DNA from: Candidatus Doudnabacteria bacterium
Lineage (GTDB): Bacteria > Patescibacteriota > Doudnabacteria > UBA920
Direction: 5' to 3'
Assembly: GCA_023245895.1 (NCBI GenBank)
Contig: JAHFJJ010000001.1
Span: 7,621-71,620 of the forward strand
DNA length: 64,000 nucleotides
Both the position numbers and the translations under genes were made by a program. The notes beneath the pieces are model-generated. The model saw only the letters and a list, made by a program, of their open reading frames with translations, was not told the DNA's origin and did not search any database. This document shows positions 2,341 to 62,036 of the stretch, in pieces; position 1 is the stretch's first letter, and each line of letters starts with the position of its first letter.

Positions 2341-3723
2341 ATGCCACTATCATCTATCAGTCCCATTGACGGCCGCTACGCCAAACAAACCAAACCGCTG
2401 GTTGAATTTTTCAGCGAACAGGCTTTAATGCGCTACCGCCTTATTGTTGAAGGCGAATATTTAATCGCGCTGTCGGAACTAAAACTCAAGCTTAGGAAAT
2501 TATCTGACAAAGAAAAAAAACTTATCCGCTCCCTTTATAAATTGCCAACAACCGATGCGCAAATTATTTCTGATATTGAACAGAAAGGCTACAAAAATAT
2601 CCCGGCAACCAACCACGACGTAAAAGCCGTGGAATACTTTTTAAAGTTAAAGCTGGAAAAAACTTCCCTAAAAAAAGTCTTGGAATGGGTGCATTTTGGC
2701 TTAACTTCTTACGATATAAATACTCCCGCCCGCGGCATGATGCTGGGCGATGCTTTGGAAGAAGTAATCTTGCCGAAAATTAATTTGGTAATCCAAAATA
2801 TTGAATCGTTAGCGAAAAAACATAAAAGCCTGCCCATGCTTTCGCGCACCCACGGCCAGCCTGCCTCCCCCACCACTTTTGGCAAGGAGATGGCTGTTTT
2901 TTCCACGAGATTAAAAAAACAATTGGCTGTTCTGAAAAATACAAAAATCTCGGTAAAACTCAGCGGCGCCACCGGCAACTTTAACGCCCATGTGGCGGCT
3001 TACCCAAAAGTTGACTGGATAAAATTTGCCAAAAATTTTATTAACAGCGCCAATAAAAACAGAATCCTCAAACTGGAATTAAATTTGCCCACTACCCAAA
3101 TAGACCCGCATGACAGCGAAGCGGAAATTTTTGACTGTTTGCGCCGTATGAACAGCATTTTAATTGGCTTTAACCAGGACATGTGGCGCTACATTAGCGA
3201 CGAGTGGGTTGGCCAAAAAGCCGTAAAAGGCGAAGTCGGCTCCTCTGCCATGCCGCATAAAATCAACCCCATAAATTTTGAAAACAGCGAAGGCAACTTA
3301 GGCCTGGCCAATGCTTTGTTAAACCATTTTTCGATGAAATTGCCAATCTCGCGACTGCAAAGGGATTTATCAGATTCCACAGTAGAAAGAAACTTTGGTT
3401 CAGCCCTGGCTTACAGCCTAATTGCTTACGAAAATTTACTAAAAGGACTGTCCCGAATTGAGGTAAATAAATTTAAGATGGCGCAAGATTTAAAAGCCCA
3501 TCCCGAAGTCATTGCCGAAGCCATTCAAACAGTCTTGCGCAGGGAAGGCGTAAAAATGCCTTACGAAAAACTTAAAGAACTTACTCGCGGCGAAAAAGTT
3601 ACGCTCAATGATATGCATAAGTTTGTTGATGGTTTAGATGTAAGCGATAAAGTTAAAAAAGAGCTAAAAAAGTTTACCCCGGAAAATTATACCGGATTAG
3701 CAAATAAACTGGCCTTGATGTAG
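2341..3723 (+). CDS. purB: Adenylosuccinate lyase
   Basis: Fumarate-lyase family signature GSSAMPHKINPINFENSEGN. N-terminal SPIDGRYA. 460 aa. Confidence 0.9.
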   Translation: MPLSSISPIDGRYAKQTKPLVEFFSEQALMRYRLIVEGEYLIALSELKLKLRKLSDKEKKLIRSLYKLPTTDAQIISDIEQKGYKNIPATNHDVKAVEYFLKLKLEKTSLKKVLEWVHFGLTSYDINTPARGMMLGDALEEVILPKINLVIQNIESLAKKHKSLPMLSRTHGQPASPTTFGKEMAVFSTRLKKQLAVLKNTKISVKLSGATGNFNAHVAAYPKVDWIKFAKNFINSANKNRILKLELNLPTTQIDPHDSEAEIFDCLRRMNSILIGFNQDMWRYISDEWVGQKAVKGEVGSSAMPHKINPINFENSEGNLGLANALLNHFSMKLPISRLQRDLSDSTVERNFGSALAYSLIAYENLLKGLSRIEVNKFKMAQDLKAHPEVIAEAIQTVLRREGVKMPYEKLKELTRGEKVTLNDMHKFVDGLDVSDKVKKELKKFTPENYTGLANKLALM

Positions 3724-3773
3724 CGTGCCCATTTATGGGCGATCTTAGACGCCGATAAATCGGCACGCTACAC
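3720..3773. repeat. REP doublet (two inverted units with a 3-nt spacer) overlapping the purB stop codon
   Basis: gtagcgtgcccatttatgggcgatct-tag-acgccgataaatcggcacgctacac. The TAG stop of purB is the TAG inside the terminal GTAG of the REP. Confidence 0.8.
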
Positions 3774-6072: not shown

Positions 6073-8136
6073 ATGTCTCTACTTTTTGGAAAACTTACAT
6101 TAGCCGCCCTGCCCCACGAATGGTTCACCATCGCGGGAACGGTTTCAATGATGTTAGGCGGCCTTGGCGTTGCGCTTTTTTTGACCTACTACAAGCGCTG
6201 GAAATGGCTGTGGACAGAATGGCTGACATCTACCGACCCTAAAAGAATTGGCATTATGTATTTTGTGGTGGCTTCTTTAATGCTGGCCAGGGGCGCTCTG
6301 GACGCGGGCATGATATGGCTACAGCAGGCGCTTTCAGTGGGCAGCTCCCACGGCTACTTAAGCGCCGACCACTTCCAGCAAATTTTTACGGCCCACGGCG
6401 CAATAATGGTCTTTTTTGTTACCATGGGTTTTTTGTCCGGACTAATTAACTACATAATGCCCCTGCAAATTGGCGCGCGCGACGTGGCATCGCCTTTGCT
6501 TAACACTTTAAGCTTTTGGCTTTACGTTGCCGGCGCGGTTTTAATAAATTTGTTTTTCGTGTTCGGCGGGGAATTCGCGGCAACCGGATGGCTGTCCATT
6601 GCCCCGCTTTCGGGCATTGAGTTTTCCCCCGGCGTAGGCGTGGACTACTGGATATGGAGTTTGCAAATTTCCGGCTTGGGCAGTTTGCTTGCGGGCGTGA
6701 ACTTTATTGTCACCATTTTAAAAATGCGAGCGCCGGGCATGACTTTAATGCGCATGCCAATGTTCGTTTGGACATCCCTCTCCAGCATGGTGCTGGTAGT
6801 TTCTGTTTTTCCAATTTTGGCCATGACTTTAATCCTTTTAACTTTAGACCGCCAATTCGGTACGCATTTTTTTACCTCGGGTTTTGGCGGCAACCCCATG
6901 CTTTATACCAACCTTATTTGGTCGTGGGGGCATCCGGAAGTTTATATTTTAATGATACCCGCCTTTGGCGTTTACTCCGAAGTCGTATCTACCTTTAGCC
7001 AGAAAAAATTATTCAGCTACAAGTCTTTGGTTGTCGCGGCCATTCTAATTACTTTGCTTTCGGTTTTGGTCTGGCTTCATCACTTCTTTACCATGGGCGC
7101 GGGCGCTAATGTTAACGCCTTTTTCGGAATTATGACCGGCGTAATTGCGATTCCAACCGGCGTGCAGGTTTTTACCTGGCTGGCCACAATGTACAAAGGA
7201 AAAATTAACTTTAAACAGCCCATGCTCTGGTTTGTTGGCTTTATCTGCACCTTTACCTTGGGCGGAGTGGCCGGAGTCATGCTTGGAATTCCGGGGATTG
7301 ATTTTCAGGTGCACAACAGCCTGTTTTTGGTTGCCCACTTCCATACCATGGCCATAGGCGGAGCGCTGTTCGGGATTTTTTGCGGCATTACCTACTGGTT
7401 CCCCAAAATTACAGGTTTTATGCTAAACGAACGGCTTGGCAAATACGCCTTCTGGTCTTGGATAGTCGGCTTTTTTGTTTCCTTTATGCCGCTCTACATT
7501 TTAGGTTTTATGGGCGCGCCCAGGAGGCTTGACCACTACGATGCATCGTTGGGCTGGCAATGGTTGTTTATAGTCGCGGGTTTTGGATTTTTAATTATTT
7601 GCTTAGGCGCGGCTTTGCAGGTTTTACAAATTATAGTAAGCGTTATACAAAGAAAAGAAAGTATGGATGTTACCGGAGACCCCTGGAACGGTAGGACTTT
7701 GGAGTGGGCAACGTCTTCTCCTCCCCCTGTTTACAATTTTGCAATTATACCCGAAGTTAGGGATCGCGATGCTTTCTGGGATATGAAACAATACGCTGTC
7801 ATTGCGAGAAGTGCAGCCGACGAAGCAATCTTATCCGAGAGTAGATTGCCGCGCCCCTCGGATGCACTCGGGGCTCGCAATGACACACAAAAAATTACTT
7901 ACAAAGATATAGTGATGCCAAAAAACACCGCCATTGGCATCTACATTTCCGCCTGCACCTTCTTTTTTGGCTTTGCTTTTGTTTGGCACATTTGGTGGCT
8001 GGTTATTGCAAGTGCAATAGGCGCAATCGTATGCTTAATTGTCAGGTCGTTCGATGAAGAAACTGAATATGTTATTACTGCGGTGGAAGTTGAAAAAATA
8101 GAAAGCATAAATAAATCTTCTACGTTCCCGATGTAG
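6073..8136 (+). CDS. cyoB: Cytochrome bo3 ubiquinol oxidase subunit I, with an in-frame palindromic-element insertion near the C-terminus
   Basis: Haem-copper oxidase subunit I with 12 or more TM helices and the motifs WFFGHPEVYI-like (GHPEVYILMIPAFG) and HFHTMAIGG. The C-terminal IVMPKNTAIG...VWHIWWL matches the CyoB tail. An extra segment of about 27 aa is encoded by the repeat at 7798-7886. Confidence 0.9.
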   Translation: MSLLFGKLTLAALPHEWFTIAGTVSMMLGGLGVALFLTYYKRWKWLWTEWLTSTDPKRIGIMYFVVASLMLARGALDAGMIWLQQALSVGSSHGYLSADHFQQIFTAHGAIMVFFVTMGFLSGLINYIMPLQIGARDVASPLLNTLSFWLYVAGAVLINLFFVFGGEFAATGWLSIAPLSGIEFSPGVGVDYWIWSLQISGLGSLLAGVNFIVTILKMRAPGMTLMRMPMFVWTSLSSMVLVVSVFPILAMTLILLTLDRQFGTHFFTSGFGGNPMLYTNLIWSWGHPEVYILMIPAFGVYSEVVSTFSQKKLFSYKSLVVAAILITLLSVLVWLHHFFTMGAGANVNAFFGIMTGVIAIPTGVQVFTWLATMYKGKINFKQPMLWFVGFICTFTLGGVAGVMLGIPGIDFQVHNSLFLVAHFHTMAIGGALFGIFCGITYWFPKITGFMLNERLGKYAFWSWIVGFFVSFMPLYILGFMGAPRRLDHYDASLGWQWLFIVAGFGFLIICLGAALQVLQIIVSVIQRKESMDVTGDPWNGRTLEWATSSPPPVYNFAIIPEVRDRDAFWDMKQYAVIARSAADEAILSESRLPRPSDALGARNDTQKITYKDIVMPKNTAIGIYISACTFFFGFAFVWHIWWLVIASAIGAIVCLIVRSFDEETEYVITAVEVEKIESINKSSTFPM
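7798..7886. repeat. Palindromic element family B (gtcattgcgag...ctcgcaatgac) lying in frame inside cyoB
   Basis: Perfect 11-bp terminal inverted repeat, gtcattgcgag at 7798-7808 against ctcgcaatgac at 7874-7884, with nested internal stems. Near-identical to the intergenic copy at 25249-25324. It translates as AVIARSAADEAILSESRLPRPSDALGARNDT, which has no counterpart in E. coli CyoB. Confidence 0.75.
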
Positions 8137-8186
8137 TTAGCCCATTTATGGGCTGTCTATAACAGCTGATAAATCAGCTAACTACA
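8133..8186. repeat. REP doublet (variant) overlapping the cyoB stop codon
   Basis: gtagttagcccatttatgggctgtct-ataac-agctgataaatcagctaactac. The cyoB TAG stop is the GTAG of the REP. Confidence 0.75.
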
Positions 8187-9427: not shown

Positions 9428-10318
9428 TTGCTTATGTTCAAAACCTACTACAAATTAGCCAAACCCGGAATTATTTACGGCAATGCCATAAATGCGATTG
9501 CCGGGTTTTTACTTGCCTCGCAGGACGGTTACGATTTTAGACTGTTAATGATAACCCTAATCGGTATTTCCTTGATAGTCGCCTCGGCCTGCGTTTTCAA
9601 CAACATTTGGGACGCGGAGATTGACGCCAAAATGGAACGCACCAAAAACCGCGCCATGGCAGTAAAATCCATAACAAAATCCAACGCGGCTGTTTACGGC
9701 GGCTTGCTTTTCATGCTGGGAGCAACTATTCTCCACTATCACATAAACGATGCCGCGCTCTTTGCCGCGTCTTTTGGTTTTTTAGTTTATGTATTCCTTT
9801 ATACCCCGCTCAAACGCCATACAATTTACGCCACGCAAATTGGCGCGGTTGCGGGAGCCATGCCCGCCGTTGCCGGATACACTGCCATAACGAATAATTT
9901 TGACCTTGGGGCCGGAATATTGTTTTTAATTATAGCCCTCTGGCAAATGCCCCACTTTTACGCCATAGCCATTTACAGGATGGATGAATACGCCGCGGCC
10001 GGTGTCCCCGTCCTTTCGGTTAAAAAAGGCATAAATTTTACCAAAATAAGTACTTTAATTTATTTAATAGCCTTTACTGCTTCTACCAGCTTACTAACGG
10101 TATACGGCTTGACCGGCTACCTTTATTTGGCGGTAATGTTGTTATTAGGCTTAATCTGGCTCTACAAAGGCGTAAAAGGACTTTCCGCCAGAGGCGGATC
10201 CGCCTTTGGCGGAAAAGTTGCTGACGATATTCTGTGGGCAAAAAAGATGTTCCGGTTATCGCTTATTATAATTTTGGCCTTTTGTGTTATAATTCCTATA
10301 GATAAATTTTTCAAATGA
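9428..10318 (+). CDS. cyoE: Protohaem IX farnesyltransferase (haem O synthase), carrying a 28-nt palindrome in frame
   Basis: UbiA-family polyprenyltransferase with about 9 TM helices and NxxxDxxxD (NNIWDAEIDAKMERT). It is the last gene of the cyo operon. Residues SARGGSAFGG are encoded by the palindrome at 10185-10212. Confidence 0.9.
   Translation: MLMFKTYYKLAKPGIIYGNAINAIAGFLLASQDGYDFRLLMITLIGISLIVASACVFNNIWDAEIDAKMERTKNRAMAVKSITKSNAAVYGGLLFMLGATILHYHINDAALFAASFGFLVYVFLYTPLKRHTIYATQIGAVAGAMPAVAGYTAITNNFDLGAGILFLIIALWQMPHFYAIAIYRMDEYAAAGVPVLSVKKGINFTKISTLIYLIAFTASTSLLTVYGLTGYLYLAVMLLLGLIWLYKGVKGLSARGGSAFGGKVADDILWAKKMFRLSLIIILAFCVIIPIDKFFK
10185..10212. repeat. Palindrome ccgccagaggcggatccgcctttggcgg inside the cyoE reading frame
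   Basis: The same 28-nt palindrome occurs intergenically at 10839-10866 as a perfect palindrome, and inside rpoD at 53916-53943. Confidence 0.7.
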
Positions 10319-15897: not shown

Positions 15898-16132
15898 AAA
15901 AATTCCTTAATTGGCTCTACTAGATACTTAAATTTACGAAAATACAAAATCTAAGGTTTAAAGCTTTAGTATTTTATTTTAAGTTTCGCCTGCCTGCGGT
16001 AGGCAGGTATTTAGTAGAAAAATTTAATAATTATTTTATATGATTTATTGTAGCAAAATTTTGGCTTTTGTAAAAAGTAAAACGTTAATTTTTAATTATT
16101 GTTCTTATAATACTGCTAAGCCCTTACCAACA

Positions 16133-16351
16133 TGAGCCCAAAAACCTCTGTCATCCCGGAATTTTTTGGCACGTCCGACGTAGCTTTAGCGAAGTTGGAA
16201 GGGCTGTAAAAATATCCCTGCCTACCGCAGGCAGGCGGGATCCAGAACTTGGCTTATATACTGGATCCCGGCTCTCGGATGTCGTACCTTCGGTAGATCT
16301 GCCGTAGGCACGACATTCGGCCGGGATGACAGACTAAGGGTTTTTGGGCTC
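16133..16351. repeat. Composite nested palindrome of about 220 nt, MITE-like or a structured RNA
   Basis: Outer inverted repeat gagcccaaaaacc/ggtttttgggctc. Inner inverted repeat ctgtcatcccgg/ccgggatgacag. Internal pairs cgggatccag/ctggatcccg and cctgcctaccgcaggcagg. The last unit also occurs in opposite orientation at 15991-16010. Confidence 0.55.
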
Positions 16352-20926: not shown

Positions 20927-20978
20927 GTAGTTGCCTGATTTATCAGGCCCTTGGAGGCTCGATAAATCGAGCAACTAC
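20927..20978. repeat. REP doublet (variant) in the intergenic region of the GC-rich island
   Basis: gtagttgcctgatttatcaggc-ccttggag-gctcgataaatcgagcaactac. Same gtag...ctac termini and ttatc/gataa loop logic as the REPs at 3720 and 8133. Confidence 0.7.
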
Positions 20979-25248: not shown

Positions 25249-25324
25249 GTCATTGCGAGGAGTGCAGCCGACGAAGCAATCTTATCTAAGGAAAAGATCG
25301 CTTCGGATGCACTCGCGATGACAT
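25249..25324. repeat. Palindromic element family B, the intergenic copy
   Basis: gtcattgcgaggagtgcagccgacgaagcaatcttatc...gatcgcttcggatgcactcgcgatgacat. Roughly 90 % identical to the copy inside cyoB. Confidence 0.75.
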
Positions 25325-25347
25325 GGAAGAGAATAATCAAAAATATT

Positions 25348-25551
25348 ATGGCAATAATAATAAATATAGATGTCATGCTGGCCAAAAGGAAAATGAGCGT
25401 CACCGAACTTACGGAAAAGGTCGGCATAACCATGGCCAACATTTCGATTTTAAAAAATGGCAAAGCAAAAGCCATCCGCTTTTCCACCCTGGAAGCAATT
25501 TGCAAAGCTTTAAATTGCCAACCTGGGGATATTTTAGAATTCAAAAGATAA
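25348..25551 (+). CDS. XRE-family HTH transcriptional regulator, YozG-like
   Basis: MAIIINIDVMLAKRKMSVTELTEKVGITMANISILKNGKAKAIRFSTLEAICKALNCQPGDILEF is a near-consensus YozG. I moved the start to ATG 25348, because the track start at 25318 lies inside the repeat. Confidence 0.8.
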   Translation: MAIIINIDVMLAKRKMSVTELTEKVGITMANISILKNGKAKAIRFSTLEAICKALNCQPGDILEFKR

Positions 25552-25602
25552 TTAAAAAACAGTGGGTTATCTACCCACTGTTTTTTAATCTCTGATGATT
25601 AT

Positions 25603-26484
25603 TTAGACAAATGATCCGGTTTTTACTTCTCCCGCTCTTTCGTAGTTGGCTACAATAACTCCGCTGGGTGTAACTTTGCTATCAGTTAATTTGAATGCGA
25701 CGGGAATTGTGCCTCCTGCCTGCCGCGTCCGGCCGGCTTTCCACTCACGTTTTAACCATTTTCGGCCAAATCCTGTCTTCAAATCATGCTCACGCTTTAC
25801 TGCCAGTTCACGAGTAATATACTCCTCATAATGGATTATCTCTATAGGCTTACGCAGTTTTGTGTGTTCAGCACCATAGCCGGCTGCATGCTGATTCCAA
25901 CGCTCTGATAGGTCTTGGGTTTGGCCAATATATATCGATCCATCATCACAGAGTATCGCATATACAAAAAATAGATTCGGCCGCGGCGCAGGCAGGTCGG
26001 CAAATAGGCGCTTACCCGAGCCTAAGGTTACAGGAAAAGTTTTTAGCAGTAATTCATCTACCAAATCGTGTTTCAAAAGCGTTTGGATGAGGTTAGCGCT
26101 GCCCCAGACTTTTAAGTCAGGCCCGTCTTGGGCTTTGAGTTTTTTAATTTCCTCTACAATGTCGTCTTTTATAATAATGGAGTTTTTCCAGTCAGCTTTT
26201 GTAAGCGTATTTGAAACTACATACTTGGTGGCTTCGTTAATGCCGGGCCAGCCTTCTTCGTGCTGTGGCCAATAGTTAGAAAATATGTCAAAAGTTTTTC
26301 TGCCCAGGAGCAAATCGGAAGGCTGTTTCATTTGCTCGCCCATTATTTTGCCGGCTACTTCATCAAAATAAGGAAAAGTCCAGCCGCCATACTTAAAGCC
26401 GCCCGAAGTATCTTCTTCCGGTCCGCCCGGCGCCTGCATTACGCCGTCTAAACTAATAAAACTAAGGACAATAATTTTTCTCAT
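25603..26484 (-). CDS. RibD_C/DHFR-like (YwjB-type) reductase-family protein with a GIY-YIG nuclease domain inserted in frame (aa 172-258)
   Basis: The N-terminal 171 aa (IIVLSFISLDGVMQAPGGPEED...GSGKRLF) and the C-terminal 35 aa (TIPVAFKLTDSKVTPSGVIVANYERA) together make a normal RibD C-terminal-domain protein. Between them sits a complete COG2827-type GIY-YIG domain (FFVYAILCDDGSIYIGQTQDLSERWNQHAAGYG...REHDLKTGFGRKWLKRE), encoded at about 25711-25971. Confidence 0.65.
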   Translation of the reverse strand: MRKIIVLSFISLDGVMQAPGGPEEDTSGGFKYGGWTFPYFDEVAGKIMGEQMKQPSDLLLGRKTFDIFSNYWPQHEEGWPGINEATKYVVSNTLTKADWKNSIIIKDDIVEEIKKLKAQDGPDLKVWGSANLIQTLLKHDLVDELLLKTFPVTLGSGKRLFADLPAPRPNLFFVYAILCDDGSIYIGQTQDLSERWNQHAAGYGAEHTKLRKPIEIIHYEEYITRELAVKREHDLKTGFGRKWLKREWKAGRTRQAGGTIPVAFKLTDSKVTPSGVIVANYERAGEVKTGSFV

Positions 26485-26721
26485 ATTTTCGCATTATTAA
26501 TTACGTTTAGACCCTCTATTGAACATTGCTTGGATTAATGGGCTTACTAATTTGTCTGTGAAAAAGGTATCAGGTATCTTTTCTTATTTAAGTTGGGCTG
26601 ACGGATGTTACTTTCCGGCCGCAAGGAGTATGCAGGCTTGGCCGGCGCGGGTTTTAGTGCCTGCCGATTGTTTGACTGAGTCTATCCAGGTAACAAAGTC
26701 CCAAAGTCGGGACTGACTGCT

Positions 26722-27063
26722 TTATTTAGTCCTGAACGGCCGTTGATTAACTTCTTTAAGGATTCTAAGTGTGGCGTGTACCGAGAGGTTATCGCTTGGT
26801 AAAAGTATTAGTTTATCGCCTAATTGGTTGAGCAGCCGGCTTAAAAACTCATCGGCCCAAGACGGCGACAGTGTTAATATGCCGGAAAAATCTATTTCCA
26901 GTTCTTCGTCTTTAGGTAGCCCCCGTAAAGTAGTTTGAAAAGCCTTAAAAGCCTCGCTGCCCAATTCACGCGATATTAAGGTTTTACCAAATTTTTCCAG
27001 TTGCAATTTCATAGTAAGTATTAAATTATTTCCATTTTTTAAAATTCTATTTTTGCCAAACAT
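26722..27063 (-). CDS. DUF4325/STAS-like small protein
   Basis: 113 aa, co-directional with the upstream GHKL ATPase gene and overlapping it by 25 nt. The SpoIIAA-like fold call is weak, made from pattern only. Confidence 0.4.
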   Translation of the reverse strand: MFGKNRILKNGNNLILTMKLQLEKFGKTLISRELGSEAFKAFQTTLRGLPKDEELEIDFSGILTLSPSWADEFLSRLLNQLGDKLILLPSDNLSVHATLRILKEVNQRPFRTK

Positions 27064-36838: not shown

Positions 36839-38257
36839 TTGGAAATACATACGCCGGGACAAATTTTTAGAAACACTCCGTACGATAAATTTATTTTGAA
36901 CCTTTCGTGCAGCCAAGCTAAGCTGGAAAATGACAACAAAGGAGTAGATGTAAAGCGCGGACTTAGAAAGAAAATTGCAGCAGGTATGACCATTGGCTTG
37001 GTACCGGAAGGTTATGTAAATTCCAAATATGCAGCCAGGGGCACAAACGTGGCGTTAAAAGATTCAGAGCGTTTTCCTTTGGTCCGCAAAATGTGGGACT
37101 TAATGCTTACAGGAAATTATACACCGCAACAAATTTTAAAAATTGCAAACAGAGAATGGGGTTATAAAACAATTCAGCGGCACAAAATTGGTGGCAAATC
37201 TTTATCTCGTAGTGCAATCTACCAAATGTTTAAAAATCCATTTTATTATGGTTCTATATTTCTTCGTAAAGCTGACGAAGTACATCCGGGCACTCACGAG
37301 CCAATGGTTACCAAAGAAGAATTTGACCGCGTCCAATTTTTGCTCCGCAGCAAGGGCTTAAAATCCGCGCCTCATACAAAAGAGTTTGCCCATACCGGAC
37401 AAATTGTTTGCCAGGAGTGCGGCTGCCAAATTACAGCAGAAGAAAAAAATAAATTCGTCTGCACCAATTGCAAACAAAAGTTCACCCATTCCTTTAAAGG
37501 TAATAAAGCGGCCTGCCCGTACTGCGGTACTTTAATTGCTAACATGGAAAAGCCAAAAAGCTACCATTATGTTCACTACCGCTGCACCAAACGCAAGAAC
37601 ACTGAAACTTTCCGCTGCTCTCAATCCAGCGTTAGTGAAAAAGACTTGGAAGGCCAGGTTAAAAACTTCCTAGCGACAATAAGCATAAACCCCAAATATC
37701 TGGAATGGGGCCTTAAGCATTTAAACGAAAACAAACCAAAAGAAGCCGTAACAGAGGAGGCTATAGCTCAAAATGCAGAAAAGGCATTAGCCGGCATAGA
37801 GAAAAAACTCGGTGGTTTAATTGATATGCGCGCTGCGGGAGAAATTAGCGAGGAGGAATTTAGCAAACGCAGGCAAGCGGCTCTAAATGAAAAGGAGCTG
37901 ATGGAAACAATTTTAAAAAAGAATAAACGCGATGACAGCCAAGGCACTAACAAAGCAAAAGAAACTTTAACATTTGCCGAGCGCGCCTTAAGAGAATACG
38001 AAAATGGCGACAAAAGAAAGAAACACGAGATATTAAAGACCTTAAGTTCGGAACTAAAGCTAAACAACAAAACACTTCTTATACATGCGCAGAAACCTTC
38101 TATAATTCTAACTCAATCTCTTGTGGCCGTACCTGAAGCAAAAGCAGGGTTAGGAACCGTAGAACCCACTATAAACAAAAGACGAACTGCGTCTTTCGAC
38201 GTCGTTCGTCCTTCGTGGCTCGGGAGCTGGGATTCGAACCCAGAACCAATCGATTAA
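36839..38257 (+). pseudogene. Large serine recombinase lacking the N-terminal catalytic (resolvase) domain: recombinase domain, zinc ribbon and coiled coil only
   Basis: It carries the recombinase-domain motif (YQMFKNPFYYGSI), a CxxC...CxxC zinc beta-ribbon (CQECGC...CTNC...CPYCG) and a coiled-coil tail. No Ser-containing resolvase domain or alpha-E helix appears upstream. Its 3' end runs into tRNA-Asn, the expected att site. Confidence 0.65.
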
Positions 38258-38290
38258 CAGTCGATTGCTCTACCGTTGAGCTACTCCCGA
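38216..38290 (-). tRNA. tRNA-Asn (anticodon GTT), CCA encoded
   Basis: The cloverleaf reads out by hand: acceptor tcgggag/ctcccga, D-arm gctc-aacggta-gagc, anticodon stem atcga/tcgat with loop ctGTTaa, T-arm ctggg-ttcgaat-cccag, discriminator G then CCA. 75 nt. Confidence 0.85.
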
Positions 38291-38526
38291 ATATTTTCGT
38301 CAAGCCATTTGCGGCCTTGACCAGACTTTAAGAATTTTTCTCTTCTTAAGGCCTCGTTTTTTGTCGCAAACATCTCTTGATGGATTAATATCCAAGGCTT
38401 GTTATGTCGAGTAAAGATGTTAGTCCCATTGTTATGTTCGGCAAGGCGCGCTTCCGCAGATTTTGAGCTGGAGCCGACATAGCGTTTGCTATTCCTTTGG
38501 CTTTTTAACACATATACGCGGAACAT
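38281..38526 (-). CDS. GIY-YIG nuclease (COG2827/Slx1-URI-like), free-standing; its last 3 codons overlap the tRNA-Asn 5' end
   Basis: 81 aa. YVLKSQ...RYVGSS...RLAEHNNG...KPWILIHQEMFATKNEALRREKFLKSGQGRKWLDEN. It is a paralog of the domain inserted in the DHFR-like gene. Confidence 0.75.
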   Translation of the reverse strand: MFRVYVLKSQRNSKRYVGSSSKSAEARLAEHNNGTNIFTRHNKPWILIHQEMFATKNEALRREKFLKSGQGRKWLDENIRE

Positions 38527-38538
38527 ATTTTTACAGTC

Positions 38539-38599
38539 TCCGCCGGAGGCGGACCAGCCTCTGGCTGGGATTGCTCTACCGTTGAGCTACTCCCGAATA
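38539..38599. repeat. Palindrome ccgccggaggcggaccagcctctggctgg, followed by a 31-nt duplicate of the tRNA-Asn 5' half
   Basis: 38569-38599 (gattgctctaccgttgagctactcccgaata) is identical to 38263-38293, which covers tRNA nt 1-28 plus 3 flanking nt. The GIY-YIG gene lies between the two copies. Confidence 0.75.
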
Positions 38600-61361: not shown

Positions 61362-61418
61362 GTTTATATTTTAATAATCATAAAATATTATACCAATTTT
61401 AGATACTTTAATAAATTA

Positions 61419-61452
61419 GCCTCAATAATTCACGGCCGTGAATTATTGAGGC
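61419..61452. promoter_or_regulatory. Perfect 34-nt palindrome gcctcaataattcacggccgtgaattattgaggc covering the stop of the PaaX-like gene
   Basis: Exact self-complementarity. It shares the core ttcacggccgtgaa with the second palindrome at 62003-62036. Confidence 0.6.
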
Positions 61453-62009
61453 TTTCTGATTTTGTTCAAATCAAATCTTTTTCTTAGCTCCTCATCATTA
61501 TCCATTTCATCGACTTTAATAATCCTTATATAATTCATTAGACCGCTTTGCTGCAGATAGCCTATAGCCTCTCTGTTTAAAGGATAAGGGTTAATAAAAA
61601 CGCTGGCTTGAAGCTTTACAAAATTATTTCTTTTTAAAAGGCCTCGTAATTGATCTCGTTTATCTCTAGCCTCTTCTGGTACATCAAAAATTACAATCCT
61701 CCATTTTCCATCCCAATGATTGCTTTTACTGATACTTGCCTTTACAAAAAGTTTTTCCAATTCACCTTTGCTAGTTAAGGCAAGAAAATTGTTACTTCCT
61801 TTTTTAGCTACCTTTACCAATCCTTTACTTTTCATTCGGCGTATAGATTCATAACAACTTTTCTTGCTTGCCCCTTTAAGTTGATTTCGACGCCAGCTAT
61901 CCGTGTGCTCTAAAGGCCATTGGAAAAAGCCCGTCGATTCACCTATAGCTGTTAATAATATACTGCTTAATGACCCGTATTTATTGCTCATAAATTTATT
62001 ATACCTCAT
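61443..62009 (-). CDS. PaaX-family-like transcriptional regulator
   Basis: WDGKWRIVIFDVPEEARDKRDQLRGLLKRNNFVKLQASVF matches the PaaX C-terminal-domain pattern. The N-terminal part is winged-helix-like. Its start and stop codons lie inside the two flanking perfect palindromes. Confidence 0.5.
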   Translation of the reverse strand: MRYNKFMSNKYGSLSSILLTAIGESTGFFQWPLEHTDSWRRNQLKGASKKSCYESIRRMKSKGLVKVAKKGSNNFLALTSKGELEKLFVKASISKSNHWDGKWRIVIFDVPEEARDKRDQLRGLLKRNNFVKLQASVFINPYPLNREAIGYLQQSGLMNYIRIIKVDEMDNDEELRKRFDLNKIRKPQ

Positions 62010-62036
62010 TATTTCACGGCCGTGAAATAATGAGGT
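62003..62036. promoter_or_regulatory. Perfect 34-nt palindrome acctcattatttcacggccgtgaaataatgaggt covering the start codon of the PaaX-like gene
   Basis: Exact self-complementarity, about 85 % identical to the palindrome at 61419. Confidence 0.6.

Follow-up and report, generated by a model that had tools for sequence, protein, structure and literature searches.

A 64,000-nucleotide stretch of a Candidatus Doudnabacteria contig (JAHFJJ010000001.1), hereafter referred to as the window, contains a gene for a RibD_C-type reductase that is interrupted in frame by a 282-bp cassette encoding a GIY-YIG nuclease. Comparison of this gene with uninterrupted homologues, and of the cassette with its counterparts in many unrelated host genes, suggests that the cassette is very probably a selfish, mobile element that resides inside protein-coding genes and is translated through. 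As to the specific mechanism, it is tentatively proposed by analogy that a stem formed by single-stranded DNA (ssDNA) is recognised by the element's own nuclease. If the first of these readings is true, the cassette would exemplify a third solution, next to those of inteins and introns, by which a selfish nuclease element can reside in a gene that stays intact, namely by remaining in the protein, with its repeats serving as linkers.

The cassette splits a reductase gene with codon precision

The composite open reading frame (ORF) was first noticed in a first-pass annotation made from the sequence alone, and its combination of a RibD_C reductase with a GIY-YIG domain in 293 amino acids (aa) is present as claimed. 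Pfam assigned RibD_C to residues 2-168 (E 2.2e-23, far above the gathering score) and GIY-YIG (PF01541) to residues 173-239 (E 4.7e-15, 56.1 bits versus a cut-off of 22.6 bits), and a scan of the entire protein returned no domain besides these two. The predicted return to the C-terminal strands of the reductase was likewise borne out, as residues 258-293 align with the corresponding part of uninterrupted homologues. In the AlphaFold model of the 293-aa protein (mean pLDDT 71.7) the GIY-YIG block reaches about 90, the linkers at residues 151-162 and 255-262 fall below 50, and the two host halves together can be superposed, across the insertion, on 8jsv, a DHFR-like enzyme of 195 aa (Foldseek, 47% identity, TMt 0.79).

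A homologue search with the 293-aa protein covered 5.8 billion proteins, 8000 of which were scored and the best 120 listed. More than 100 RibD_C homologues of 198-200 aa, at most 87% identical, cover the host part alone and lack the insert; with the cassette removed, the host protein is 86-87% identical to them. Among the best 120 listed homologues PF01541 was found in three, the match to the window protein itself, P0002 and P0108. The window protein and P0002 carry the approximately 94 extra residues between ...KRLFAD and GTIP..., whereas in P0108 the block is located about 70 residues further upstream.

The insertion point was mapped by alignment with an empty allele (L001:3001-3603) that is 74% identical at the DNA level to the window host gene. 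The filled allele reads GCC GA[C CTG CCT ... CAG GCA GG]A GGC ACA, and the empty allele GCA GAA GGT ACA. Deletion of nucleotides 25715-25996 yields GCC GA/A GGC ACA (the slash denotes the junction), i.e., ...F-A-E-G-T..., and thus restores the reading frame codon-exactly as in the empty alleles; the resulting join is ...TTTGCCGA/AGGCACA.... The first-pass annotation had read 171 residues as a normal reductase and had placed the domain at 25711-25971, corresponding to residues 172-258. Its architecture stands, but the reductase part comprises 163 residues and the inserted unit is L164-G257. Moreover, what it took for a protein-level unit is indeed an in-frame domain, yet its bounds are set at the DNA level by inverted-repeat ends. 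These ends are imperfect inverted repeats of approximately 20 nt (CCTGCCTGCGCCGCGGCC...GGCCGGACGCGGCAGGCAGG), the outermost nucleotides of which, CCTGCCTGC at the start and GCAGGCAGG at the finish, form a perfect 9-bp inverted repeat (Table 1).

Table 1. Positions in the window of the composite gene, the cassette and related features
Feature	Position	Strand	Evidence
Composite ORF, 293 aa: DHFR-like RibD_C reductase plus cassette	25603..26484	-	ORF map, Pfam, alignment, Foldseek
Host gene, 5′ part: codons 1-162 and 'GA' of the split GAN codon	25997..26484	-	alignment to empty allele L001:3001-3603, codon map
Host gene, 3′ part: third codon base displaced by the insertion, followed by GTIPVAFKL... 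and the stop codon	25603..25714	-	alignment, codon map
Putative mobile element, 282 bp (94 codons, L164-G257), 5′-CCTGCCTGCGCCGCGGCCGAAT...GCCGGCCGGACGCGGCAGGCAGG-3′, without start or stop codon of its own	25715..25996	-	codon map, empty-allele alignment
5′ terminal inverted repeat, element positions 1-20, encodes (D)LPAPRP	25977..25996	-	282-nt copy alignment, covariation
3′ terminal inverted repeat, element positions 261-282, encodes AGRTRQAG	25715..25736	-	282-nt copy alignment, covariation
GIY-YIG catalytic domain, residues 173-239, UPF0213/Slx1-like type	25768..25968	-	Pfam, PDB 1ywl/1zg2, pLDDT ~90
19-nt hairpin CCTGCCTGCGGTAGGCAGG, intergenic; shares the 9-nt termini of the cassette, possible miniature relative	15989..16007	.	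sequence scan
Same 19-nt hairpin reversed, CCTGCCTACCGCAGGCAGG, intergenic	16217..16235	.	sequence scan
Free-standing GIY-YIG paralogue, 81 aa, own ATG, not part of the element	38281..38526	-	38% identical to the cassette nuclease over 77 aligned residues

The element interrupts a codon between its second and third bases. The host codon GAN that is divided in this way gives GA+C (Asp) at the left junction and GG+N, which is Gly for any N, at the right junction, and the junction peptides expected from the window gene are …RLFAD-LPAPRPN… and …TRQAG-GTIPV…. P0002 and P0108 serve as mutual empty sites, and excision of either cassette restores the codons of the neighbour, GA/T GGC and CA/T GAT, respectively. 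No target duplication was found when the filled and empty alleles were compared at the window site or at the reciprocal sites of P0002 and P0108. The flanks of 75 copies reveal the short motif GA^YGR, with G at position -2 in 62 and A at position -1 in 61 of the 75 copies, followed downstream by C (48) or T (19) at +1, G (60) at +2, and G (47) or A (24) at +3.

The cassette recurs in many unrelated host genes

A word-indexed protein search with the cassette alone returned 17 candidates, including matches in MsrB, TrmD, HsdR, MGMT and HsdS/HsdM-like fragments, in which the cassette always starts with (D)LPAPRP and ends with GR[TA]RQAG. A context-blind DNA scan of 185,579 genomes employing the 19-nt left end yielded 120 listed matches, most of them chance occurrences in high-GC genomes; among the matches listed were seven cassettes, six of them complete, and a few miniatures, numbers that do not represent an estimate of copy number. 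The seven cassettes stem from Patescibacteria, Saccharibacteria, Binatia, Brocadiaceae, Verrucomicrobiota and a deltaproteobacterium. All six complete copies are exactly 282 bp in length and lie in sense orientation and in phase within a long ORF, the hosts being arginyl-tRNA synthetase (ArgRS), HsdM (twice, at the same site), HsdS, a PD-(D/E)XK nuclease/helicase and RibD_C.

An exhaustive profile search of 1.84 billion cluster representatives resulted in 212 matches at E<1e-30. Inspection of the best 150 of these at least 212 representatives revealed that almost all are internal insertions; the proteins concerned range from 100 to 1101 aa, and some harbour two or three copies; in the parsed cases the block comprises 94 aa in 50 of 70 and is preceded by Asp in 46 of 70. 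In addition, 396 loci were confirmed when metagenome contigs were scanned with a protein pattern. In the best 80 of these, on which the metagenomic copy statistics are based, the cassette is 282 bp long in 75 and 303, 306 or 309 bp in the remainder, contains no internal stop codon and runs in frame into the host ORF on both sides in 80 of 80. The same kind of pattern scan found zero cassettes in the viral contigs of IMG/VR, and the PLSDB plasmids contained no cassette, only a distant free-standing relative.

The 103 host proteins scanned with Pfam all match PF01541. Type I specificity subunits (HsdS, Methylase_S) account for 69 of them, and about 25 other families are represented as well. These include further restriction and modification proteins (HsdR, HsdM, type IIG enzymes, type III Mod methylases, BREX-like methylases, DUF1156/DUF559), as well as trigger factor, pseudouridine synthases, TatD, QueC, HPPK, cobalamin adenosyltransferase, TrmD, ArgRS and SET. 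At least 30 distinct flanking contexts could be discerned, including three sites within HsdS, and most HsdS copies sit at the conserved motif ...QDPND/EPAS.... Thus, the in-frame-inserting cassette that the first-pass annotation had suspected from a single gene is found in many unrelated host ORFs.

Some hsdS genes harbour two or three cassettes each (L150, P0137 and P0181). The two cassettes of L150, at 91-375 and 1078-1359, are divergent, with identities of 47% and 65% to the window copy, and occupy repeated conserved motifs of HsdS. Besides its embedded cassette, the contig of P0108 (L005:985-5566) carries, within 6.6 kb, three GIY-YIG ORFs that are free-standing and encode 95-96 aa each.

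With regard to the history of the insertions, P0001 and P0002 carry the cassette at the same site, and their cassettes are 74% identical, the hosts 59%. P0002 and P0108 carry it at different sites, with 82% identity between the cassettes and 74% between the hosts. Because the cassettes are more alike than their hosts and many homologues are empty, independent gains are favoured over one ancient gain followed by many precise losses.

The ends are constrained as nucleic acid

For the analysis of the ends, 73 distinct copies of 282 nt were aligned without gaps. Four-fold degenerate third positions in the end repeats are invariant or nearly so (column 7, T in 73/73; column 13, G in 73/73; column 280, A in at least 90%), whereas synonymous sites in the interior of the cassette have reached saturation (dS up to >1). 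The modelled stem comprises 18 pairs formed between columns 1-8 and 275-282, 11-15 and 270-274, and 16-20 and 261-265. Standard pairs occupy 94.6% of its cells, and 17 of the 18 pairs are complementary in the window copy. Cells in which both partners have changed number 56, versus 17 +/- 3.5 in shuffled alignments, none of 500 shuffles attaining 56, with covariation counted per sequence and not per evolutionary event. As a control, the 3′ partner was slid by one to three columns, which reduced pairing to 28-50%. An alternative register of the stem (positions 1-9 and 14-20) was set aside, as the double changes at 11-274 and 15-270 favour 1-8/11-15/16-20.

The variation is exemplified by pair 16-265, which occurs as G-C (33), A-T (18) and C-G (8), and by pair 19-262, which occurs as G-C (24), A-T (10), C-G (10) and G-T (13). 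Since columns 16, 19, 262 and 265 are the third bases of codons for Arg, Pro, Ala and Gly, selection at the protein level cannot explain their covariation. Judged from this alignment, the constraint on the ends is one that acts on nucleic acid. In line with this, the termini pair in the minimum-energy folds of the window copy, both as DNA and as RNA, and the RNA fold that pairs the two ends has a z of -2.2.

Repeat-only miniatures accompany the cassette

Contigs bearing a cassette are rich in repeat-only copies of the form CCTGCCTGC-loop-GCAGGCAGG, which are 21-45 bp in length; this length is a multiple of three in 55 of 74 occurrences, counted on both strands. Several of these copies lie within the same long host ORFs as the cassette and read LPA...QAG. 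Moreover, P0126 and P0128 differ by one 13-aa repeat-only unit beside the cassette end, and the cassettes of 303-309 bp look like 282-bp copies with nested miniatures. Repeat-only copies of 33 bp, which would read LPAPRPxRQAG if translated, are also present in contigs of Tectomicrobia, Nitrospira and Methylomirabilota (L035, L067, L083 and L115), where they lie in locally repetitive DNA that does not code for protein, in some cases within larger palindromes.

The cassette is translated through and its nuclease is preserved

An in-frame ATG within the first 12 codons was found in none of 73 cassettes, and any possible start codon is absent in 55 of 73. Having no start codon of their own, the cassettes can yield the nuclease only as part of the host polypeptide. 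Stop-free copies, lengths that are multiples of three and the absence of a conserved start codon agree with the earlier proposal that the host carries the nuclease as an internal domain.

The catalytic residues, i.e., the Tyr of 'GIY', the Tyr of 'YIG', Arg, His and Glu, are all present in the window copy (VY..IYIG..R..H..RE), and across cassettes the corresponding columns either do not vary or are at least 90% conserved. The ratio of nonsynonymous to synonymous substitution (dN/dS) of the interior, compared between copies that occupy orthologous sites, is 0.03-0.26. By these measures, the interior of the nuclease is under purifying selection and would be kept functional. Its nearest solved relatives are the single-domain UPF0213 proteins 1ywl (EF2693, E 1e-10) and 1zg2 (BH0048, E 9e-10), which places the cassette nuclease by homology in the bacterial UPF0213/COG2827/Slx1-like clade; possibly it is Ssn-like. 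The NCBIfam model for group I intron endonucleases (TIGR01453) scored 19.9 bits versus a cut-off of 56, matching the N-terminal motif alone.

A proposed mode of spread and the evidence against it

The cassette consists of a GIY-YIG nuclease of approximately 80 residues bracketed by repeats that are translated as linkers rich in Pro, Gly and Arg (LPAPRP... and ...GRTRQAG). As the element has no promoter, start or stop and its length is a multiple of three, the host ribosome reads straight through. Only sense, in-phase insertions at tolerant sites can keep the host gene working and at the same time express the nuclease, and it is these that persist. So far the account follows from the sequence data; the steps of movement, in contrast, are a proposal. 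In ssDNA the two ends would pair such that the base of the stem falls exactly at the junctions between element and host. The nuclease might then recognise the stem and cut at the junctions and/or at GA^YGR targets, as suggested by the analogy with Ssn, and host replication or repair would complete the move. The repeat-only miniatures could be non-autonomous derivatives moved in trans. In addition, diverged alleles that are filled at one and the same site point to a second, homing-like route, and recombination between homologous flanks would explain both the reuse of sites and the dominance of the recombination-prone conserved motif in hsdS.

Several observations weigh against this proposal. 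No near-identical cassettes were found in unrelated hosts, where copies are at most 77% identical at the DNA level; near-identical cassettes always reside in orthologous hosts or share the host context. The cassette-bearing ArgRS stands alone among its 120 nearest homologues, the closest empty ArgRS being 66% identical at the protein level. With the nearest empty alleles at 74% DNA identity for the window gene and 66% protein identity for ArgRS, the insertions seen must be old. Recent transposition was therefore rejected, given that there is neither a near-identical cassette pair in unrelated hosts nor a close empty ArgRS, and the recent insertion envisaged in the first-pass annotation could not be demonstrated. 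Movement of the element is read from sequence comparison. The sampling of best-ranked loci favours intact copies and may miss decayed or out-of-frame ones. The strong and lasting purifying selection together with the bias towards HsdS (69/103) would also fit a role beneficial to the host.

Other points concern the mechanism. The covariation of the ends could also come from one protein reading both ends as duplex DNA. The stem contains G:T in 31 and A:C in 18 cells, a weak asymmetry in counts that are not phylogenetically independent, and the ends may pair in ssDNA of either strand, in a cruciform or in RNA. The flanks of the target exhibit no self-complementarity in excess of permuted flanks at nine registers, and a self-complementary (hairpin) target site was rejected on this ground. 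Furthermore, a hydrolytic GIY-YIG nuclease cannot perform strand transfer alone and thus leaves the integration step unexplained, so that integration must use host replication or repair, or else recombination between homologous flanks. Finally, the likeness of the cassette to the Ssn family (cd10448) is one of description.

Alternative explanations

Classical homing, with the embedded nuclease cleaving empty alleles of the same gene and double-strand-break repair copying the cassette into them, the repeats being incidental or otherwise used and hairpin-based transposition playing no part, appears rather unlikely as the sole explanation. It would readily account for the RibD_C site shared by P0001 and P0002 (hosts 59%, cassettes 74% identical), for the same HsdM site filled in Brocadiaceae and Verrucomicrobiota genomes, and for the accumulation of HsdS copies at the ...QDPND/EPAS... 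motif. However, the at least 30 unrelated contexts share only GA^YGR, which is too short for a homing site, the related hosts P0002 and P0108 are filled at different sites, and the core of approximately 80 aa has no DNA-binding module beyond its catalytic part. Moreover, homing leaves both the invariant, co-varying repeat ends and the repeat-only miniatures unexplained.

It is improbable that the cassette is a domesticated domain that benefits the host, e.g., an effector nuclease added to restriction-modification complexes, its home being HsdS and the housekeeping copies being strays. The prevalence of HsdS (69 of 103 hosts), the presence in HsdR, HsdM, type IIG, type III Mod and BREX-like methylases, and a dN/dS of 0.03-0.26 in orthologous copies despite saturated synonymous sites all agree with this view, but the identical unit also resides in ArgRS, TrmD, MsrB, QueC, HPPK, trigger factor, pseudouridine synthases and the reductase, none of which has an evident DNA-nuclease role, and close homologues work without it. 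In addition, conservation and covariation of the ends at the DNA level and the occurrence of miniatures are hallmarks of a mobile element and not of a domain.

A removal of the insert before maturation of the protein, be it intein-like, intron-like or by translational bypass, is highly improbable, although RNA folding predicts pairing of the two ends (z = -2.2) and the stem has a slight excess of G:U over A:C (31 vs 18). The Pfam scan of the 293-aa protein, which yielded RibD_C and GIY-YIG only, detected no Hint or intein domain. The junction residues are D/L and G/G in the window protein, and the +1 residue across copies is mostly E, G, Y or K, i.e., no nucleophile such as Cys, Ser or Thr. 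Rfam returned zero families at the gathering score in 25300-26800. Excision of RNA would require neither lengths of 282, 303, 306 or 309 nt, nor stop-free copies (80/80), nor a fixed phase, and the translational bypass gaps known to us are far shorter than 282 nt. By all appearances the insert is spliced out at neither the RNA nor the protein level, and the host protein would keep the nuclease as an internal domain, which agrees with the statement of the first-pass annotation that no intein splicing domain is present.

An assembly chimera, which only the general caution toward metagenome-assembled sequence would suggest, or an ancient and widespread two-domain architecture of the reductase can be neglected, as the identical 293-aa protein was independently assembled in at least two further ENA assemblies, the architecture recurs at hundreds of loci, the junctions in the window gene are codon-precise, and only three of the best 120 listed homologues (8000 scored) contain the domain, one of them at a different site.

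Relation to known systems

Full-text searches, with most subscription journals outside their scope, found no account of an in-frame, repeat-ended GIY-YIG cassette, which is thus apparently undescribed as a mobile element. On the features tested in the sequences, inteins, introns, I-TevI-type homing endonucleases and transposase-encoding transposons are excluded. The known kinds that stand behind the cassette are selfish GIY-YIG nuclease elements and in-frame palindromic elements, and there is a substantial chance that it forms a class of its own.

A close parallel is provided by the Ssn nucleases, single-domain GIY-YIG proteins of approximately 94 aa without a separate DNA-binding domain, which bind hairpin repeats and cleave exclusively ssDNA in their vicinity (Chenal et al. 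2025, PMC11893778). GC-rich, hairpin-forming NTS/SRM repeats, which also exist in many gene-less copies, lie on both sides of the ssn genes, and the arrangement 'NTS-ssnA-NTS' has been likened to an insertion sequence, with mobility only hypothesised (PMC11893778). The cassette matches them in size (94 codons) and is likewise bracketed by hairpin-forming repeats that are also present without the gene. The layout differs, however, in that each ssn flank has its own local hairpin, whereas the two ends of the cassette pair with each other. Moreover, ssn genes are free-standing and have their own expression signals, whereas the cassette lies inside an ORF and is translated through, without its own start or stop. 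NTS copies are rarely found inside genes (2%; PMC11893778), whereas cassettes lie inside ORFs, and the NTS and the cassette ends share no sequence similarity.

A GIY-YIG insertion in the HsdR protein MCA0838 of Methylococcus capsulatus had already led to the suspicion of a recent insertion and of 'molecular parasites' (Dunin-Horkawicz et al. 2006, PMC1564403). In contrast to the cassette, which is likened to it by description only, this was a single instance at the protein level, given without boundaries, repeats, target, miniatures or host range. The same study placed the UPF0213 proteins in a bacterial Slx1-like cluster of single-domain proteins that lack both a C-terminal Asn motif and additional domains (PMC1564403). 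The single case of 2006 and the Ssn/hairpin-repeat system temper the suggestion of the first-pass annotation that the cassette represents a new class of mobile domain.

Like inteins, the cassette is selfish in the reading preferred here, carries a nuclease, lacks its own expression signals and lies in frame in host ORFs, including essential genes. Inteins, however, undergo protein splicing by means of a Hint domain and nucleophilic junctions, employ LAGLIDADG or HNH endonucleases and have no inverted-repeat DNA ends, whereas the cassette stays in the protein. It differs from group I and group II introns in that it has no Rfam match and is always in phase and stop-free (best 80 copies). With the GIY-YIG homing endonucleases I-TevI and Seg it has in common the catalytic fold within a selfish element and the refilling of the same site in diverged alleles; these enzymes are intron-borne or free-standing and possess long DNA-binding extensions, whereas the cassette has no room for further domains (NUMOD, zinc finger, helix-turn-helix).

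Terminal inverted repeats, many unrelated sites, a short target motif and non-autonomous miniatures are reminiscent of inverted-repeat transposons and miniature inverted-repeat transposable elements, and the lack of a target duplication together with the probable involvement of DNA secondary structure is reminiscent of IS200/IS605. Unlike transposons, the cassette encodes no DDE or HUH transposase and no serine or tyrosine recombinase, as its 94 codons hold GIY-YIG alone; it also lacks a target-site duplication and expression signals and depends on its phase in the host ORF.

The Rickettsia palindromic elements (RPEs), which Ogata and colleagues reportedly described in 2000, are said to be 100-150 bp in length, to lie in frame in genes and to be translated. 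To our knowledge they encode no enzyme, and we know of no protein that mobilises them. The cassette resembles them, by description, as palindromic DNA in frame in coding genes that is translated as an extra peptide, and differs from them as a nuclease-encoding, autonomous form alongside miniatures of 21-45 bp.

It is possible, in our judgement with slightly less than an even chance, that the cassette is the autonomous member of an unrecognised class of 'translated-through' transposable elements, its only gene product being a hairpin-guided ssDNA GIY-YIG nuclease that can be made solely as an internal domain of the host protein and that has the paired ends as its own substrate for excision or insertion in ssDNA, and the miniatures being mobilised in trans. 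If so, in-frame palindromic repeats like those of Rickettsia would gain the enzyme that they have been missing, and Ssn-type nucleases a natural function. The cassette would also link three loose ends, i.e., the function and insertion sequence-like layout of Ssn-type nucleases, palindromic repeats that are translated in proteins, and the odd GIY-YIG insertion of 2006. Its sites would mark naturally insertion-tolerant positions in many enzymes, including an aminoacyl-tRNA synthetase, and it could provide an ssDNA nuclease that is compact, has a defined cognate stem and is possibly guided by structure. For annotation, the findings serve as a warning, because 'GIY-YIG fusion proteins', especially HsdS-GIY-YIG, would represent parasitised genes and not new enzyme architectures.

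Possibly related hairpins and other features of the window

The first-pass annotation had regarded the cassette as the equivalent of palindromic elements. This likeness holds insofar as miniatures exist in other genomes and two 19-nt hairpins of the window share the termini of the cassette (Table 1), but the large palindromes of the window differ from it. The two hairpins, in opposed orientation (15989-16244), enclose 209 bp of AT-rich intergenic DNA. The second lies within ATCCC...GGGATCCAG and resembles by eye the Neisseria NTS layout (ATTCCC..GGGAATCYRG).

The large palindrome families were considered as relatives of the cassette and rejected, as their sequences differ from the cassette ends. 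One of them is a family of approximately 54 nt (TGTAGC..CCCATTTATGGGC / ..GATAAATC..GCTACA) at 3719-3772, 8132-8186 and 20927-20978, the sequence of which is unrelated to these ends. Another comprises two perfect palindromes of 34-36 nt at 61418-61453 and 62003-62036 (AGCCTCAATAATTCACGG/CCGTGAATTATTGAGGCT and ACCTCATTATTTCACGG/CCGTGAAATAATGAGGT, respectively). A GC-rich imperfect palindrome (CCGGCCGCAAGG...CTTGGCCGGCGCGG) is located at 26610-26665, just upstream of the host reductase gene.

The free-standing GIY-YIG paralogue adjoins tRNA-Asn, as had been noted at the outset. Its ORF ends inside the tRNA gene (38216-38290, within 38216-38598 on the minus strand), and its last four codons, IRE*, correspond to the 5′ end of the tRNA. 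A 30-nt direct repeat of the 5′ part of tRNA-Asn (ATTCGGGAGTAGCTCAACGGTAGAGCAATC) is present upstream at 38569-38598, and two small hairpins lie between this repeat and the ATG of the gene. From this arrangement, the locus looks like an insertion into the tRNA gene by which an intact copy of the latter was reconstituted. An ORF of 472 aa (36839-38257, plus strand) that contains Cys-rich motifs ends beside the locus and may encode the integrase or recombinase of an integrated element. The hairpin TCCGCC-N3-GGCGGA occurs in eight copies in the window versus 0.12 expected (at 10184, 10199, 10837, 10852, 38539, 43707, 47334 and 53927), and one of these copies immediately precedes the free-standing GIY-YIG gene, a placement reminiscent of the association of Ssn nucleases with hairpin repeats.

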